Below, piece by piece: positions 1,422-18,178 of a stretch of DNA of 25,733 nt. A program made the translations under genes and the position numbers. Each line of letters starts with the position of its first letter. The stretch's first letter is position 1. The DNA is from a virus. Its lineage: Duplodnaviria > Heunggongvirae > Uroviricota > Caudoviricetes. Location: positions 1 to 25,733 of the IMG/VR virus record IMGVR_UViG_2585427772_000005. One strand, written 5' to 3'. The notes beneath the pieces are model-generated. The model saw only the letters and a list, made by a program, of their open reading frames with translations, was not told where the DNA came from and did no database searches.

Positions 1422-3896
1422 TTAAAAATCAGCCTGACTCGGGATCAGTTTTTGCCAGATAACTGAAACGTATTTTGCCTGGTAACGGGCGTCATCAAGT
1501 GCATTATGGCGCTCACCTTCGAATGGAATAGCCGTTCTGGCATCGAAGTCTATGGCTTTCCCCAGCTCAACGATTGTGCGTACATCGCGATCGTTGTAGT
1601 AACGCCACGGGTAGGGGATCCCCTGCCGTTCGTATGAACGGCGCAAAATCGTGTTGTCGAAGTTGGCTCCATTTCCCCAAACCTGAACAAAAAATTCACC
1701 GGAGTTTTCGTCGATAAATTCCCGCAATTGTAACAGTGCATCATCTAACGGGATTTCATCGGTCATAATGGCAGATTGCGCTTCGCGTGATTGCTTAAGC
1801 CACCATTTAATGGTGTCCCGATCAATGACTCCGCCAGCAGTTTCCAGATCGATAGTCTTACTAAATTCCGGTCCCATATCTCCGGTTTGCGGATCGAAAA
1901 ATATTGCACCTATTGAGATGATCGGGGCATCAGGATTTTTTCCCATGGTTTCAAGGTCGATCATTAGATGGTCACACGTCCTGCTGGTGGATGTGATTTC
2001 TTGATGACCGTTCACCTTAATTGAGTGATCTGCCGTCTCGCCAGTTTCATTATCGCTATCGTGATGCTGATTGCCGTCAGTGTTCTCCTTGTGTGGATGT
2101 TCAGCGCCTTCCATTTCCTCCGGATCATCTTCCTGAACTTCAACCTGATACTCTTCATCGAATGTTTCCTGGTATGTTGCGTCGCCCATCACCGCGCCAC
2201 AATCAGGGCAGTTGCCGCCGCCGGTCTGACCGCAGGCGGTGCAGACTTTTTCCACTTCCTGTTGCGCCACTGGTTCAGGCTGTTTCGTTTCTGGCTCGTT
2301 TTGTAACGCATTTGGGCTGTTTTGTTCCGCTTTCTGGCCGTTCTGTTCCGTTTCTTGCTGGTTCTGATTCACTGAATCGCGGGTTTCAATCCCCTTCACC
2401 CATTTCGGATCATTCGGGTCGCTAATCCCTGCAACAAATTCACCACGTGATACAGCAAGCAACTTATTGGCGTCAGGCTGGCTGATATTGGCTGCCTGCA
2501 TAATTTTGTTTACTTCGTCAGCGGTAACTTTTACCGGCTCTGGTTGTGCGATCGTGTCAGATGCACCAGTATTTTGTTGTGAACCTGAGTACGTGCCGTT
2601 TTTACGTGCGAAGTATTCCTCTTTTGTGATTTCCGTAGCTCCCAGGGCCAGTGCTTTTTCCAGACCAGAAAGTTTGTTTGCGCGACCGTATTTTTCGCCG
2701 TCCTTATCGGTGAAAAGGAAGTAGAACGGTCCCTCACGCTCTACAGATGGTTCGTCTTCCACTTCGCATTCGTTTTTTTCGTTGTCCGGCATTGCCGTTT
2801 CCACTGCATCAGTTTCTGGTACTGGTGACGGGAGAGTACCAGCTGTGCCCTGATTTGTTCCTTCGTCATCTTCAAACACGCCCTTGGTAGTCAGGTATTC
2901 AGTGATGTATTTGTTCAGTGCTACGGGATCTTTGTGAATGTCGATCGGACGCTCACGGACAAGGCCAAAAATAGTCTGACGGTCGTAGCGAACGGCATCG
3001 GGTTGTTTGCGCATTGATGCGGAAATGCGCTTCCAGTCTTCGCGATCTTTGTCGATAACTTCATTTTTTGCCCAGCGATGGATGCTGCCGTCAATGTTTC
3101 CGGTATCAATATCGCCAGGCCAGAGAGCGTAGGCCAGTTCTTCATCCAGCGTTTTCCATGTCTGCTTGTATTCGCGACAAATGGCGGCAGTGACTGGGTT
3201 GATTTTTCCTGCTGAGTTTTCAGTGTTCTGTTGATTGACTCTGGCGCTGGCGAGATCAACAACAGACGTGTATTTTCCAGTCTCTTTGCGCTCTGCGTCC
3301 TGCCGTTTTTTCCAGTTACGTAATTCAGCCTGAATTTCGGGCCATTTGGCACCCGGATTACATTTGTGTTTAACCCATCCGATAGCGAACAGTTTGCGTT
3401 CCGGATACATAGCGTTAATTTCAGGCGTTTTCATCAGTGCTTCAACGATATGCCCGTCAAAGGTAGCAACGTCTTCCTGCAGTAATTCCTGCGCGTCAAT
3501 CGCCATATCAACGGTGATGTTTTCACATGTACCGAACTTAACCAGGACCGCGTTCTGTACTTCAAGGGACAGCTTGTCAAAATTGACGTTCATCGGATCG
3601 GATTCTGGTTCGACCGGAATAAAGGAAGCGGATTCCTCATCCCAGCGGTTTTCCTGCATATATTCAGCATCCCAGGAATCGAGGGCAGGGCGGGGTATAC
3701 CGGGTTTATCCTCGCAGACAAGAAATTTATAAGCGCAGTCCTGAGCAGCCGGATAATGTTCCAGGAATTGCCAGTGAAATTTTGCGCGGGCGCGACGTTC
3801 ATCACCGGCTTCAATGGCAGTGGCTACAGCGACGGCACCTTCTTCCTTTATTGCCTGTTCGTCCGGAATGGCGGCGCAAATAAAGACTTTACTCAT
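1422..3896 (-). CDS. Exodeoxyribonuclease VIII-like protein with a C-terminal DEDDh-type 3'-5' exonuclease domain
   Basis: 824-aa ORF with an SD (TGAGGT) about 9 nt upstream. The C-terminal ~190 aa carry DEDD-type exonuclease motifs (DLETMG ... HNALDDA). The central acidic, Q/E-rich low-complexity region contains a CxxC-N9-CxxC zinc-ribbon-like motif (CTACGQTGGGNCPDCG). The family is common in enterobacterial lambdoid prophages at the exo/recE position. Confidence 0.8.
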   Translation of the reverse strand: MSKVFICAAIPDEQAIKEEGAVAVATAIEAGDERRARAKFHWQFLEHYPAAQDCAYKFLVCEDKPGIPRPALDSWDAEYMQENRWDEESASFIPVEPESDPMNVNFDKLSLEVQNAVLVKFGTCENITVDMAIDAQELLQEDVATFDGHIVEALMKTPEINAMYPERKLFAIGWVKHKCNPGAKWPEIQAELRNWKKRQDAERKETGKYTSVVDLASARVNQQNTENSAGKINPVTAAICREYKQTWKTLDEELAYALWPGDIDTGNIDGSIHRWAKNEVIDKDREDWKRISASMRKQPDAVRYDRQTIFGLVRERPIDIHKDPVALNKYITEYLTTKGVFEDDEGTNQGTAGTLPSPVPETDAVETAMPDNEKNECEVEDEPSVEREGPFYFLFTDKDGEKYGRANKLSGLEKALALGATEITKEEYFARKNGTYSGSQQNTGASDTIAQPEPVKVTADEVNKIMQAANISQPDANKLLAVSRGEFVAGISDPNDPKWVKGIETRDSVNQNQQETEQNGQKAEQNSPNALQNEPETKQPEPVAQQEVEKVCTACGQTGGGNCPDCGAVMGDATYQETFDEEYQVEVQEDDPEEMEGAEHPHKENTDGNQHHDSDNETGETADHSIKVNGHQEITSTSRTCDHLMIDLETMGKNPDAPIISIGAIFFDPQTGDMGPEFSKTIDLETAGGVIDRDTIKWWLKQSREAQSAIMTDEIPLDDALLQLREFIDENSGEFFVQVWGNGANFDNTILRRSYERQGIPYPWRYYNDRDVRTIVELGKAIDFDARTAIPFEGERHNALDDARYQAKYVSVIWQKLIPSQADF

Positions 3897-4932: not shown

Positions 4933-5775
4933 GATGGCAGCCTCCGCGATGAATTTGATTAACTCACCACCGAGGTTTTCCACGACCATAAGGGTGGTGA
5001 GACGTACAGGGGTGGAAATACCGGTCATCACGGAACCCGGCCAGCCTTGCGGCTGCCCTGCACGCCCCACCATAATGCGAATGTGGCTGTGCTTAACGCA
5101 TAAAAAAACCGCCTGAGCGCGGTTATGCGCCGTGAATGATTTCGGGTTTCCACGCCCGGCACCCGTTTTATGAGGTGCAGGTGCACTATAATTCCACCCG
5201 TTCTGGTTTTCAATAGCTACATTCAACATTTTCTCTACCTTTCATCACCGAAGTGAACTTTGTTGATGCGGTGCCTGGTGCCTCCAGGTGACGTTAACCA
5301 GTTAACAATTAACGTCGGATACAGAGCATTCCCGTTACGCCCGTAAAAGACCGCTTGTTTTAACTGTTCCGCGTGCGCTGAGCCGCATTCACCGCATCAC
5401 AAAATTCACTTTAAAAAGGGCGGCAGAGCAGTCACGGAGTAGAACTGATACCGCCAAAAGTCACCAGAAAATTGATAACAGAGGGCGTTGCAGCGGAGTT
5501 GTCACTTAAGCGTATGGTCAACCTGACAACCCGGTGTCCTCAACGGGGGAAGAAATACCCCCGCCATACTTACCGCCGCGCCATTTCGCGGATTGCCACA
5601 ACCGGAAGCGCACGATCGAATTAAATTTAACGACGACCTATACAGAGAGACTAACTTCTCCGGGCGCTTTCGTGTTATGCCCTGACTTTTCAGGGATATA
5701 TCCTTTTCAGTAAACTGTCAGTGCCGGATTCTTATCCGTGTCCGGCGCACGCACTCTACCTCACCTGTGAATAAA

Positions 5776-11579: not shown

Positions 11580-11790
11580 AAAACGGAAACCTGATTACAG
11601 ATTCCCAGATAAGGCAATGAGCTACCTGGCGTAGAGTGGGCTGATAAGTATGGGGAATGTTTTACGATGAATATTTAGACTAAAGAGTTTGTAACGCTAT
11701 GTAAGTGATTTTTTCTGGTTTAGATATTTATATGTCCGGCCAAATTGAGGTGTGTTTAAATGTAATTGCACATTGATTGTAGGGGGAATA

Positions 11791-11970
11791 ATGAAAAACG
11801 CATTGCAGTTTTTGTTTGTTGCGTTCTGGTTGTTCGCATCATGTATGCCCATCATCTTCACAGCAAGGTATATGGAAAAAATTGATGTTTTGATATTAAT
11901 GTTTGGACATATAAATGCCCTTTTTTTAGGGGTGTTCATGGCGGTCACGTGCATTGAATACTGGCGGTAA
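11791..11970 (+). CDS. Small hydrophobic (two-transmembrane) protein, 59 aa, in an AT-rich insert
   Basis: AGGGGG lies 4 nt upstream of the ATG at 11791. Two hydrophobic stretches (LQFLFVAFWLFASCMPIIF; LFLGVFMAVTCI). The overlapping minus-strand ORF 11697..11954 lacks comparable signals. Confidence 0.4.
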   Translation: MKNALQFLFVAFWLFASCMPIIFTARYMEKIDVLILMFGHINALFLGVFMAVTCIEYWR

Positions 11971-12229
11971 ATACAGCGAACGCTATTGGTTTAGTTGGAT
12001 ATTTACTGTGCCGGACAAAAACGGTTTGCAGGGAAATCTTAGTTAAGTAGAATGACTGTGGGTGCTTGAGGCTATCTGTCTCAGGCATGAACACCAAAAG
12101 GCAGATAGAGAAAAGCCCCAGTTAACATTACGCGTCCTGCAAGACGCTTAACATTAATCTGAGGCCATATCTATGCTCTACACACGTAGGTTAGCCTCTT
12201 ACGTGCCGAAAGGCAAGGAGAAGCAGGCT

Positions 12230-12385
12230 ATGAAGCAGCAAAAGGCGATGCTAATCGCCCTGATCGTCATCTGTTTAACCGTCATAGTGACGGCACTGGT
12301 AACGAGGAAAGACCTCTGCGAGGTACGAATCCGAACCGGCCAGACGGAGGTCGCTGTCTTCACAGCTTACGAACCTGAGGAGTAA
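12230..12385 (+). CDS. hok: Hok/Gef-family type I toxin (HokD/RelF-like, 51 aa)
   Basis: The translation MKQQKAMLIALIVICLTVIVTALVTRKDLCEVRIRTGQTEVAVFTAYEPEE has the Hok-family hydrophobic helix and conserved LC-E-R core, and matches the chromosomal HokD/RelF sequence as I recall it. The track ORF starting at 12173 is an in-frame upstream extension. A strong terminator follows. Confidence 0.8.
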   Translation: MKQQKAMLIALIVICLTVIVTALVTRKDLCEVRIRTGQTEVAVFTAYEPEE

Positions 12386-12452
12386 GAGACCGGGCGGGGG
12401 AGAAATCCCTCGCCACCTCTGATGTGTCAGGCATCCTCAACGCACCCGCACT

Positions 12453-12483
12453 TAACCCGCTTCGGCGGGTTTTTGTTTTTATT
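12453..12483 (+). terminator. Rho-independent terminator downstream of hok
   Basis: ACCCGC-TTCG-GCGGGT hairpin followed by TTTTGTTTTTATTTT. Confidence 0.7.
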
Positions 12484-12604
12484 TTCAACGCGTTTGAAGT
12501 TTTAGATGGTGCCGGAATAGAATCAAAAATACTTAAGTAGCGCGCAGGGAGAAGAGGGATGGACCCCGAAGGGGAAGAGCTATTTATCTGGAAGGATTCT
12601 GAAG

Positions 12605-12778
12605 ATGAAAATCGAAGAATTACGTGAAATTTTTAGTGAAGATGGCCTCTATGCTGTGCGCGTTGAGAATGGGGGTATTACCTACACAGCGTTAATTCCT
12701 GATGATCATGTAGTGTTATCTGTTGAGGCATTCATTGAATACTTGGAAAGACTCGGTTTCAAGGTAGTTCGGGAATAA
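12605..12778 (+). CDS. Small hypothetical protein, 57 aa (below the ORF-track cutoff)
   Basis: ATG at 12605 with GAAGGA 8 nt upstream. The translation MKIEELREIFSEDGLYAVRVENGGITYTALIPDDHVVLSVEAFIEYLERLGFKVVRE has balanced, protein-like composition. Confidence 0.35.
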   Translation: MKIEELREIFSEDGLYAVRVENGGITYTALIPDDHVVLSVEAFIEYLERLGFKVVRE

Positions 12779-17036: not shown

Positions 17037-17112
17037 GGCCCTTTAGCTCAGTGGTGAGAGCGAGCGACTCATAATCGCCAGGTCGCTGGTTCAAATCCAG
17101 CAAGGGCCACCA
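17037..17112 (+). tRNA. tRNA with CAU anticodon, most likely tRNA-Ile2 (lysidine-modified, reads AUA)
   Basis: Cloverleaf read by hand: acceptor GGCCCTT/AAGGGCC, D-arm GCTC..GAGC, anticodon loop CTCATAA, T-arm GCTGG-TTCAAAT-CCAGC, encoded CCA. Closely resembles E. coli tRNA-Ile2 as recalled. Confidence 0.85.
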
Positions 17113-17212: not shown

Positions 17213-17289
17213 GCGTTGTTAGCTCAGCCGGACAGAGCAATTGCCTTCTAAGCAATCGGTCACTGGTTCGAATCCAGTACAGCGCGCCA
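17213..17289 (+). tRNA. tRNA-Arg (anticodon UCU, reads AGA/AGG)
   Basis: Cloverleaf: acceptor GCGTTGT/ACAGCGC with one G-U pair, anticodon stem ATTGC/GCAAT, loop CTTCTAA, T-arm ACTGG-TTCGAAT-CCAGT, encoded CCA. Confidence 0.9.
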
Positions 17290-17753: not shown

Positions 17754-18144
17754 ATACATATCTGGATTATCACCGGTTACGGTAAAAAGTGATTGCTTAC
17801 TGTTTTTGTGAATGGCATTGCAGCAGCCGGATAATGTCAGTGCTGGCTGACGGTGTGCTGGTGGCGGGGGTGGTGGTTGCTGCTTTCCCGTTGCTGAAAA
17901 AGAAAACGCCAGACTGTTAGCCGGGTATCAGTTAGCGGGAGAAATTTTTAAATACTTCACAATTCAGGCGGTTGACTGTTGTCTGGTTTGCGGGGAGTTT
18001 GTTAAAAGAAACTGGCATGGTGAATCCCCCTGTGCGGAGGGGCAATCAGCGAGTAGGTATATGGGATAATCGCGGATTCAGGTGCTGGTACTGAATTCAC
18101 CGGGAGGCACCCGGCACCATGCAATGGCACATAGCGCCACTCTC

Positions 18145-18178
18145 CAGCCCCTCTCCGGAGGGGCTGTTTATATTGATT
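18145..18178 (+). terminator. Strong rho-independent terminator
   Basis: 9-bp perfect GC-rich stem CAGCCCCTC / GAGGGGCTG with loop TCCG, followed by TTTATATTGATTTT. It lies 23 nt beyond the 3' end of the minus-strand ORF 18201..18536. Confidence 0.65.

Follow-up and report, generated by a model that had tools for sequence, protein, structure and literature searches.

The 25,733-nt stretch of Caudoviricetes DNA analysed here (the window) includes, between positions 11580 and 12483, a reading frame for a small Hok/Gef-type toxin preceded by AT-rich DNA. The locus raises two questions: whether the toxin gene is still part of a complete type I toxin-antitoxin system, with a mok coupling frame and an antisense sok gene, and whether the AT-rich DNA upstream is more than filler. 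[quoted passage not shown] Taken as a whole, we consider it very probable that the region combines a regulated hok/sok cassette in a nin-like region with a conserved gene, ORF59, that is most likely a passenger.

The toxin gene and its prophage setting

Two overlapping reading frames define the protein-coding part of the cassette.

12230..12385, plus strand: hok toxin gene, 51 aa, with the SD AAGGAG at 12215-12220
12173..12385, plus strand: mok reading frame, 70 codons, in frame with hok, with the SD GAGG at 12161-12164

The original prediction had called a 51-aa ORF of the Hok/Gef type, and this assignment was borne out. The ORF at 12230-12385 matches Pfam HOK_GEF (PF01848) with an E-value of 1.2e-23 and 82.9 bits (cut-off 22) and PHROG 251, “MokW-like host killing,” with an E-value of 2.8e-33, and its product is 100% identical to HokD/RelF of E. 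coli K-12. An in-frame upstream extension had been noted from 12173; it exists, and gives a 70-aa ORF that ends at the same stop codon as hok. The mok ATG at 12173 lies 57 nt (19 codons) 5′ of the hok start, with GAGG 8 nt before it. The earlier reading had left a mok-like coupling frame open; such a frame is present at the sequence level, with the geometry of mokW and mokC.

Megablast against phage records identified hokW-mokW-sokW of 933W as the nearest annotated phage locus, with ~92% DNA identity over ~12017-12457, and VT2-Sakai/Sp5 aligned over the same span with the same identity. On a near-identical RefSeq chromosome, “hokD” is the sole annotation at the cassette. RefSeq omits mok, sok and the mRNA elements there, and phage records carry spurious minus-strand genes over the region, named “hornerin” and “mobile element protein.” Positions mapped from the RefSeq annotation place the cassette with O/P-like replication genes on one side and DUF968, RusA and Q on the other. 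The nin-like placement that had been proposed was thus upheld, and by its neighbors the site corresponds to the nin region of a lambdoid prophage. The same prophage also has dicB and DicF.

The hok mRNA and its control elements

We located a promoter, a leader, a terminator and a set of pairing elements for a hok transcript. The definitions of ucb and dcb follow Le Rhun et al. 2022 (PMC9841398).

12025..12053, plus strand: hok promoter, TTTGCA, 17-nt spacer, TAGAAT; sigma-70-like, 9/12 matches in a consensus scan
12060..12478, plus strand: predicted full-length hok mRNA, ~419 nt, from the Rfam leader match and an MFE fold closed by a 5′-3′ helix
12060..12071, plus strand: tac (translational activator element), at the mRNA 5′ end; pairs 12/12 with 12435-12447 in the MFE fold
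12114..12119, plus strand: ucb (anti-SD of mok), AGCCCC, box as defined in PMC9841398
12194..12199, plus strand: dcb (AGCCUC), complementary to the mok SD and overlapping the sok -10 region, box as defined in PMC9841398
12393..12414, plus strand: G+C-rich 3′ UTR hairpin of 9 bp in the MFE fold
12435..12447, plus strand: fbi (fold-back inhibitory element), CCUCAACGCACCC, pairing with 12060-12071
12454..12480, plus strand: intrinsic terminator of the hok mRNA, a stem-loop and T-run

From the end of the hok promoter it is 7 nt to position 12060, where the Rfam leader match begins. This match, to RF01794, covers 12060-12235 on the plus strand and the full length of the model (1-157), scoring 117.1 bits (gathering score 59). 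Despite the family name, “sok,” the strand that it aligns is the hok-sense one, and the alignment extends from the 5′ terminus of the mRNA as far as the start codon of hok.

In the MFE fold of 12060-12478, the tac/fbi helix closes the predicted mRNA over ~375 nt, and fbi is the strongest duplex partner of the mRNA 5′ end along the whole transcript (-21.5 kcal/mol). The full-length fold, as a thermodynamic prediction, also pairs the mok SD GAGG (12161-12164) with ucb (12115-12119). For an mRNA shortened by its last 44 nt, a fold in which tac pairs with ucb is predicted on the same thermodynamic grounds to lie 2.1 kcal/mol above the MFE and to leave the mok SD unpaired. The unconstrained MFE of the truncated mRNA is a “metastable” 5′ hairpin and not the tac/ucb stem, which counts against this rearrangement. 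By analogy with the R1 model in PMC9841398, the hairpin at 12393..12414 likely forms the 3′ end that protects the processed (truncated) mRNA.

The strong terminator expected downstream of the toxin ORF was found at 12454-12480. It comprises a 7-bp stem with 5 G-C pairs (12454-12471) followed by TTTTGTTTTT, and it is kept in most cassette copies. The hok 3′ UTR also gave a weak isrK-like match in Rfam (24.9 bits; gathering score 50), which we treated as generic hairpin-plus-terminator similarity.

The Sok antisense gene

On the opposite strand, comparison with 933W placed an antisense RNA gene and its promoter.

12112..12181, minus strand: Sok-like antisense RNA, ~70 nt, coordinates transferred from the 933W sokW annotation
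12188..12216, minus strand: sok promoter, -35 TTGCCT (12216-12211), 17-nt spacer, -10 TAACCT (12193-12188), by identity with 933W

The predicted Sok consists of a 5′ single-stranded tail, a long terminator hairpin and a U-run, and spans the mok SD and start codon. Both promoter hexamers and the spacer are identical in the window and in 933W sokW. The “pro-less” primers YO-421/422 of Takada et al. change exactly this -10, a mutation by which the sokW promoter was inactivated (PMC8621323). Our consensus scan returned no minus-strand promoter, and the sok promoter lies below its threshold: the -10 (TAACCT) agrees with the consensus at only 3/6 positions and was therefore missed by this crude scan, so the sok promoter was placed by homology.

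The minus strand of 12105-12185 forms a long hairpin followed by CUUUUCU, with z = -4.3 and 0/200 shuffles folding as well. Part of this structure had been noticed before as a leader hairpin flanked by direct repeats. The hairpin, GCGTC-CTGCAA-GACGC, is present at 12132-12147, and so are the flanks, TTAACATTA at 12122-12130 and 12148-12156, although the first starts at 12122 and not at 12124 as had been given. From the fold, this hairpin is the putative Sok terminator stem, and the TTAACATTA “direct repeats” are its outer arms. Read from the sequence, two pairs in the arms, 12126/12153 and 12127/12152, form G.U on the Sok strand and are C.A mismatches on the hok strand, so the hairpin should be more stable as Sok, which fits selection on the antisense RNA. 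Several positions in the 5′ part of Sok and around the mok start differ from sokW, and this counts against the assignment. The existence of a sok-like antisense gene, also left open originally, can be answered at the sequence level: a promoter, a terminator hairpin and a U-run are all there.

These features bear on whether the cassette might be an inactive relic like the chromosomal hok genes of K-12, in which the toxin ORF survives after its regulation or expression has failed. In favor of a relic, nothing upstream of 12216 is left in the K-12 hokD copy, some cassette copies are interrupted by an IS right at the start of hok, the sok -10 is weak, and chromosomal hok loci failed post-segregational killing tests (bioRxiv 10.1101/2025.08.07.668861). 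In the window, however, the promoter, tac, ucb, mok, sok promoter and hairpin, dcb, hok, fbi and terminator are all in register, and the cassette is free of IS, frameshift or stop. Moreover, the functional SokW of Sp5 is driven by the same promoter sequence (PMC8621323). We regard decay to a relic as highly unlikely for the window copy, and favor an intact cassette. Among 82 aligned cassette copies, Hok is intact in ~70.

Comparison with known hok systems

Alignment with characterised hok/sok loci, together with folding, located mok, tac, fbi and the sok promoter, all at the sequence level. In hokW-mokW-sokW of 933W and Sp5, which likewise resides in a lambdoid prophage, the promoter, tac, sok, mok and hok have the same order and spacing as in the window, and the layout of mokW in 933W matches that of the window mok. 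The two loci differ in four respects. The window toxin has the HokD C-terminus, ending ...FTAYEPEE, whereas 933W codes another ending; the Sok 5′ tail and the start of mok differ at ~7/20 positions; fbi is followed in the window by an intrinsic terminator, and 933W is without one at that place; and 933W has no ORF59 segment upstream of hokW. By analogy, hokW-mokW-sokW can serve as the model for the mechanism and likely role of the window cassette.

The hokD/relF gene of the K-12 Qin prophage encodes a protein identical to the window toxin, and its DNA is 95% identical over 12216-12672. In Qin, relBE replaces the whole leader and leaves hokD without the hok promoter, tac, sok and mok. Because K-12 homology begins only at 12216, with relBE before it, the window represents the complete locus that K-12 has truncated; on this alignment, it carries the ancestral form of the K-12 hokD locus. 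The mokC/hokC/sokC (gef) locus of K-12 shares the window geometry, with a mok start 57 nt upstream, in frame, and a common stop. Its sokC overlaps the first 9 nt of mokC. It belongs to a different Hok subfamily, and IS186 adjoins the K-12 locus.

The hok/sok (parB) locus of plasmid R1 has the same element set, namely tac/fbi, ucb, dcb, mok coupling and a Sok antisense RNA. Boxes that we take to be conserved in R1, for example GCUUGAGGCU, AGCCUCUUAC (12194-12203) and AAGGAGAAG, also occur in the window. In R1, mok is in a different frame from hok; the window mok, unlike that of R1, is in frame with hok. The window cassette is on a prophage, whereas R1 hok/sok is on a plasmid. At the protein level, HokW and R1 Hok are reported to be only ~44% identical (PMC8621323).

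Proposed mechanism and role

The steps proposed below follow from homology with R1 hok/sok and Sp5 hokW-sokW, and the RNA ends, processing and Sok turnover are transferred from these relatives. A weak sigma-70 promoter would produce a hok mRNA of roughly 420 nt. In this transcript, tac at the 5′ end would pair with fbi at the 3′ end, and ucb would cover the mok ribosome-binding site, so that the full-length mRNA would be inert. Slow 3′ trimming by ~40 nt would remove the terminator and fbi, after which tac could pair with ucb and the mok start would be exposed. Short-lived Sok, ~70 nt, would then pair across the mok SD and start codon, and RNase III would cut the duplex. If the supply of Sok drops, for example on prophage induction or transcription shut-off, mok would be translated, and hok with it by coupling. 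Hok would depolarise the inner membrane.

The nearest relative with published tests behaves accordingly in several respects. HokW is toxic, and SokW expressed from its own promoter neutralises it, in part depending on RNase III and Hfq (PMC8621323). After mitomycin C treatment and RecA-dependent induction, SokW is lost, and HokW is then found in the inner membrane, which it reaches ~1 h ahead of the endolysin (PMC8621323). The hokW-sokW locus is reported to speed lysis and to double phage release after induction; without it the yield halves (PMC8621323). HokD itself served as a toxic positive control in a study that also recalls that chromosomal hok loci do not mediate post-segregational killing (bioRxiv 10.1101/2025.08.07.668861). 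Given the lysis data for hokW-sokW and chromosomal hok loci that do not kill post-segregationally, help with lysis on induction is, by analogy, the best-supported role of the window cassette. An addiction or abortive-infection role is possible. Neither is what the nearest tested relative, hokW-sokW, showed (PMC8621323).

The AT-rich segment upstream of hok

The DNA from 11580 to 12015 has 38.1% GC, compared with 50.3% for the window, and falls in the lowest 2% of 436-nt windows. The original prediction had described about 600 bp of AT-rich DNA. AT-rich DNA is indeed found upstream, and the extra piece measures ~435 bp, since the 600 bp takes in the hok promoter and leader (from ~12020). Two features were delineated in this segment.

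11580..11670, plus strand: left cassette junction, non-coding here and, in other prophages, the 3′ end of the upstream gene
11791..11970, plus strand: ORF59, 59 aa, a predicted two-helix membrane protein, GGGGGAATA-ATG, with the SD GGGGG 5 nt before the ATG

A 205-aa CDS of strain KY1497 extends across the stretch homologous to 11580..11670, the first ~90 bp, and cassette copies begin at query positions 1-58. The segment is found in 1599/5426 complete E. coli genomes, usually once, and in only 3 of 50,697 phage records. It runs straight into the hok cassette in 80 viral-contig loci and several chromosomes. It fails to do so only where a contig ends, where an IS interrupts the sequence precisely at the start of hok, and in one locus that has a 1.26-kb insertion. 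On the minus strand, an 85-aa ORF (11697-11954) that is called “hornerin” in two phage records was rejected as a gene, because most cassette copies have an internal stop in it.

ORF59 as a candidate gene

As had been described, the 59-aa frame has a strong SD and two potential transmembrane segments: hydrophobic stretches cover residues 4-25 and 31-55, and AlphaFold models a plain helical hairpin with helices at 2-24 and 30-58 (pLDDT 74). Relatives of ORF59 were found only in Escherichia/Shigella. Several observations could be taken to mean that ORF59 is not a gene, and that the frame arose by chance in non-coding DNA, in a recombination scar, or in a regulatory or H-NS-bound spacer. It is annotated in none of the RefSeq records inspected and has no family match in Pfam, PHROG, NCBIfam or PADLOC at E <= 0.1; known holin and phage small-membrane families gave no sequence match, and a literature search returned nothing on the peptide. 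A search of BFVD with the fold gave no match at E <= 0.001, an uninformative result. Databases hold ORF59 versions that are frameshifted at the T7 run, and a consensus scan assigned ORF59 no promoter.

Variation within the subfamily to which the window ORF59 belongs does not decide the matter. The frame is intact in 82/82 aligned cassette copies, a set picked by similarity to the ORF59 protein and therefore biased towards intact copies. Within the subfamily, 7/8 variable sites are non-synonymous and alter the protein, although with only 8 variable sites this codon analysis is uninformative. A further copy, “67% identical” (locus L091), was left out; it is riddled with single-base indels and looks like a poor assembly.

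More informative was a second ORF59 subfamily, also of 59 aa, with 44% protein identity to the first, which was recovered when 1.84 billion representative proteins were searched exhaustively with HMMER. The motifs SCxPII, FGxxNAL and ExWR, which are polar, are invariant across both subfamilies. At 59% nucleotide identity, the two genes have a common start and stop and 59 codons with 0 indels, whereas the flanks need many gaps to align. Identity per codon position is 0.58 / 0.70 / 0.50, and between subfamilies pN is 0.34 vs a pS of 0.72, giving a dN/dS of ~0.18 with dS saturated. The SD is kept, or improved to GGAGG. From this codon-level conservation between subfamilies, together with the two-helix AlphaFold model, we judged ORF59 to be real: it appears to be a gene for a small two-helix membrane protein, and we hold a non-coding origin of the frame to be improbable. 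No third subfamily was found by tblastn of both proteins against plasmids and phages or by a profile search.

The second subfamily and the link to hok

The second subfamily is located in a chromosomal islet that is bordered by ttcA with an integrase fragment and, at its other end, by sit-transporter remnants, uspF and ompN. This islet is present in 1045/5426 complete E. coli genomes, including ATCC 11775 and ST131, and the second-subfamily gene is unannotated in all 12 records listed. About 55 nt 3′ of the gene we identified a hok fragment that derives from the 3′ half of the gene and matches window 12298-12363 with 80% identity. The islet has lost the 5′ half of hok along with sok, the leader and the hok promoter.

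The ORF59 segment is joined to hok in nearly all sampled loci, and its adjacency to hok and orientation are kept in two lineages with 44% protein identity, in the prophage nin region and in the chromosomal ttcA/sit islet. Adjacency in two diverged lineages and two contexts may mean that both descend from one old module, or that the two genes are functionally linked. If the link is functional, ORF59 could be a partner of Hok in a three-component module that, for example, tunes Hok insertion, toxicity or lysis timing, and both proteins are of small inner-membrane types. Against such a partnership, ORF59 is missing from most hok cassettes, including the functional hokW-sokW; the islet retains ORF59 intact while hok is destroyed; and one ancestral arrangement may underlie both lineages. 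Beyond adjacency and membrane type, nothing else ties ORF59 to Hok. As most hok cassettes do without ORF59, we favor a passenger over a partner, and consider a functional partnership unlikely.

ORF59 is most likely a passenger gene of the “moron” type, with a role separate from that of Hok. Of the features by which morons are recognised, a composition unlike that of the surrounding phage genes is seen in the ORF59 segment (38% vs 50% GC). For the other, a flanking promoter and terminator of its own, none was detected on the plus strand between 11580 and 12020 by the consensus scan, which is crude and misses the sok promoter too. ORF59 may be expressed by read-through of the phage early-right transcript. 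In answer to the second question, the AT-rich DNA upstream of hok is, by these comparisons, not inert filler, and carries a conserved small gene inherited with hok.

Significance

The hok/sok part of the locus adds one more intact copy of a paradigm system, a close relative of which has already been studied in a Shiga-toxin prophage, and the practical value of the cassette analysis is in annotation. The new lead is an overlooked Escherichia/Shigella family of small membrane proteins beside hok, with two subfamilies in 1599 and 1045 of 5426 genomes. If ORF59 is not a partner of Hok, it would be one more uncharacterised small membrane protein of prophages. If it does act with Hok, this would change the picture of some hok loci, which would then be three-component systems.

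Variation in the cassette leader

Copies of the cassette, in which an AT-rich segment with ORF59 (a gene for a predicted two-helix membrane protein) is followed by the hok locus, carry several leader alleles, as seen at window positions 12166-12185 and 12203-12214 compared across loci L002-L087 from other genomes and phage records. Within the leader, these copies differ most in the 5′ tail of the Sok-like antisense RNA and the start region of mok. The commonest allele (47 of 82 copies) has one extra base (GGTCAAGG), as a result of which mok becomes a 19-codon ORF that ends across the hok start, with its TGA overlapping the hok ATG (ATGA). A small hairpin is also altered in this allele, from UGCC/GGCA to GACC/GGUC, a compensatory change.

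Disrupted cassettes and a chromosomal islet

Cassette homology ends exactly at the hok start codon in L005 (near position 3141; strain ATCC 8739) and in L082-L087. An ISNCY transposase pseudogene lies near this point. In one locus, L043, a 1.26-kb insertion (1694-2957) separates ORF59 from the hok promoter. A second ORF59 subfamily, of the same 59-aa length and with 44% protein identity, is carried together with a hok 3′ fragment by a chromosomal islet (L093, 5001-5300; also L092 and L094-L100). The islet is bordered by ttcA with an integrase fragment on one side and by sit remnants, uspF and ompN on the other. Of 5426 complete E. coli genomes, 1045 have this islet, and none of the 12 RefSeq records listed annotates it.

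In GenBank phage records, two minus-strand ORFs over the cassette are named “hornerin” and “mobile element protein” (in L002, 2614-2865 (-) and 3344-3478 (-)). Stops interrupt the first in most cassette copies, and the second covers the 3′ UTR and terminator of hok. Both appear to be annotation errors.

Flanks of the hok locus

Three features were recorded at the left edge of the cassette and downstream of hok:
11607-11584 (-), terminator-like hairpin of 10 pairs (3 G.U), followed by TTTTTC
12394-12475 (+), weak isrK-like Rfam match (24.9 bits vs a gathering score of 50; E 0.005, local search)
12605-12778 (+), 57-aa ORF matching positions 13-68 of the 85 of PHROG 340

The hairpin lies immediately past the codon that ends the 140-aa ORF upstream. 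It might terminate antisense transcription, or it might be a chance occurrence: 1.1 such sites are expected per shuffle. The isrK-like match over the hok 3′ UTR probably reflects generic hairpin-plus-terminator similarity. The 57-aa ORF may be a truncated rem-like gene, because “rem” follows hokD at the equivalent place in other prophages; the homologue is annotated in RefSeq as a partial pseudogene.

Other sRNA matches and tRNA genes in the window

Elsewhere, the window contains these sRNA family matches and tRNA genes:
4990-5077 (-), C4 antisense RNA (Rfam, 82 bits)
5102-5178 (-), isrK (Rfam, 68 bits)
5418-5469 (-), DicF (Rfam, 71.5 bits)
17037-17112 (+), tRNA with anticodon CAT
17213-17289 (+), tRNA-Arg (TCT)
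17986-18175 (+), STnc100 family sRNA, a strong match (132 bits vs a gathering score of 47)

The first three are grouped close to dicB. The tRNA genes come after the Q and methyltransferase genes, and STnc100 sits downstream of them. ARAGORN assigns the CAT tRNA to Met, whereas RefSeq gives its homologue in a related genome as Ile.

A possible editing site in hok

Codon 47 of Hok is TAC and is followed by G (window 12368-12371), within UUACGAA. In hokB, A-to-I editing by TadA reportedly turns a Tyr codon into Cys, as it does at a corresponding position, cysteine 46, of hokC, hokD and hokE (bioRxiv 10.1101/2025.08.07.668861). By its sequence, codon 47 looks like the UACG context of such editing.
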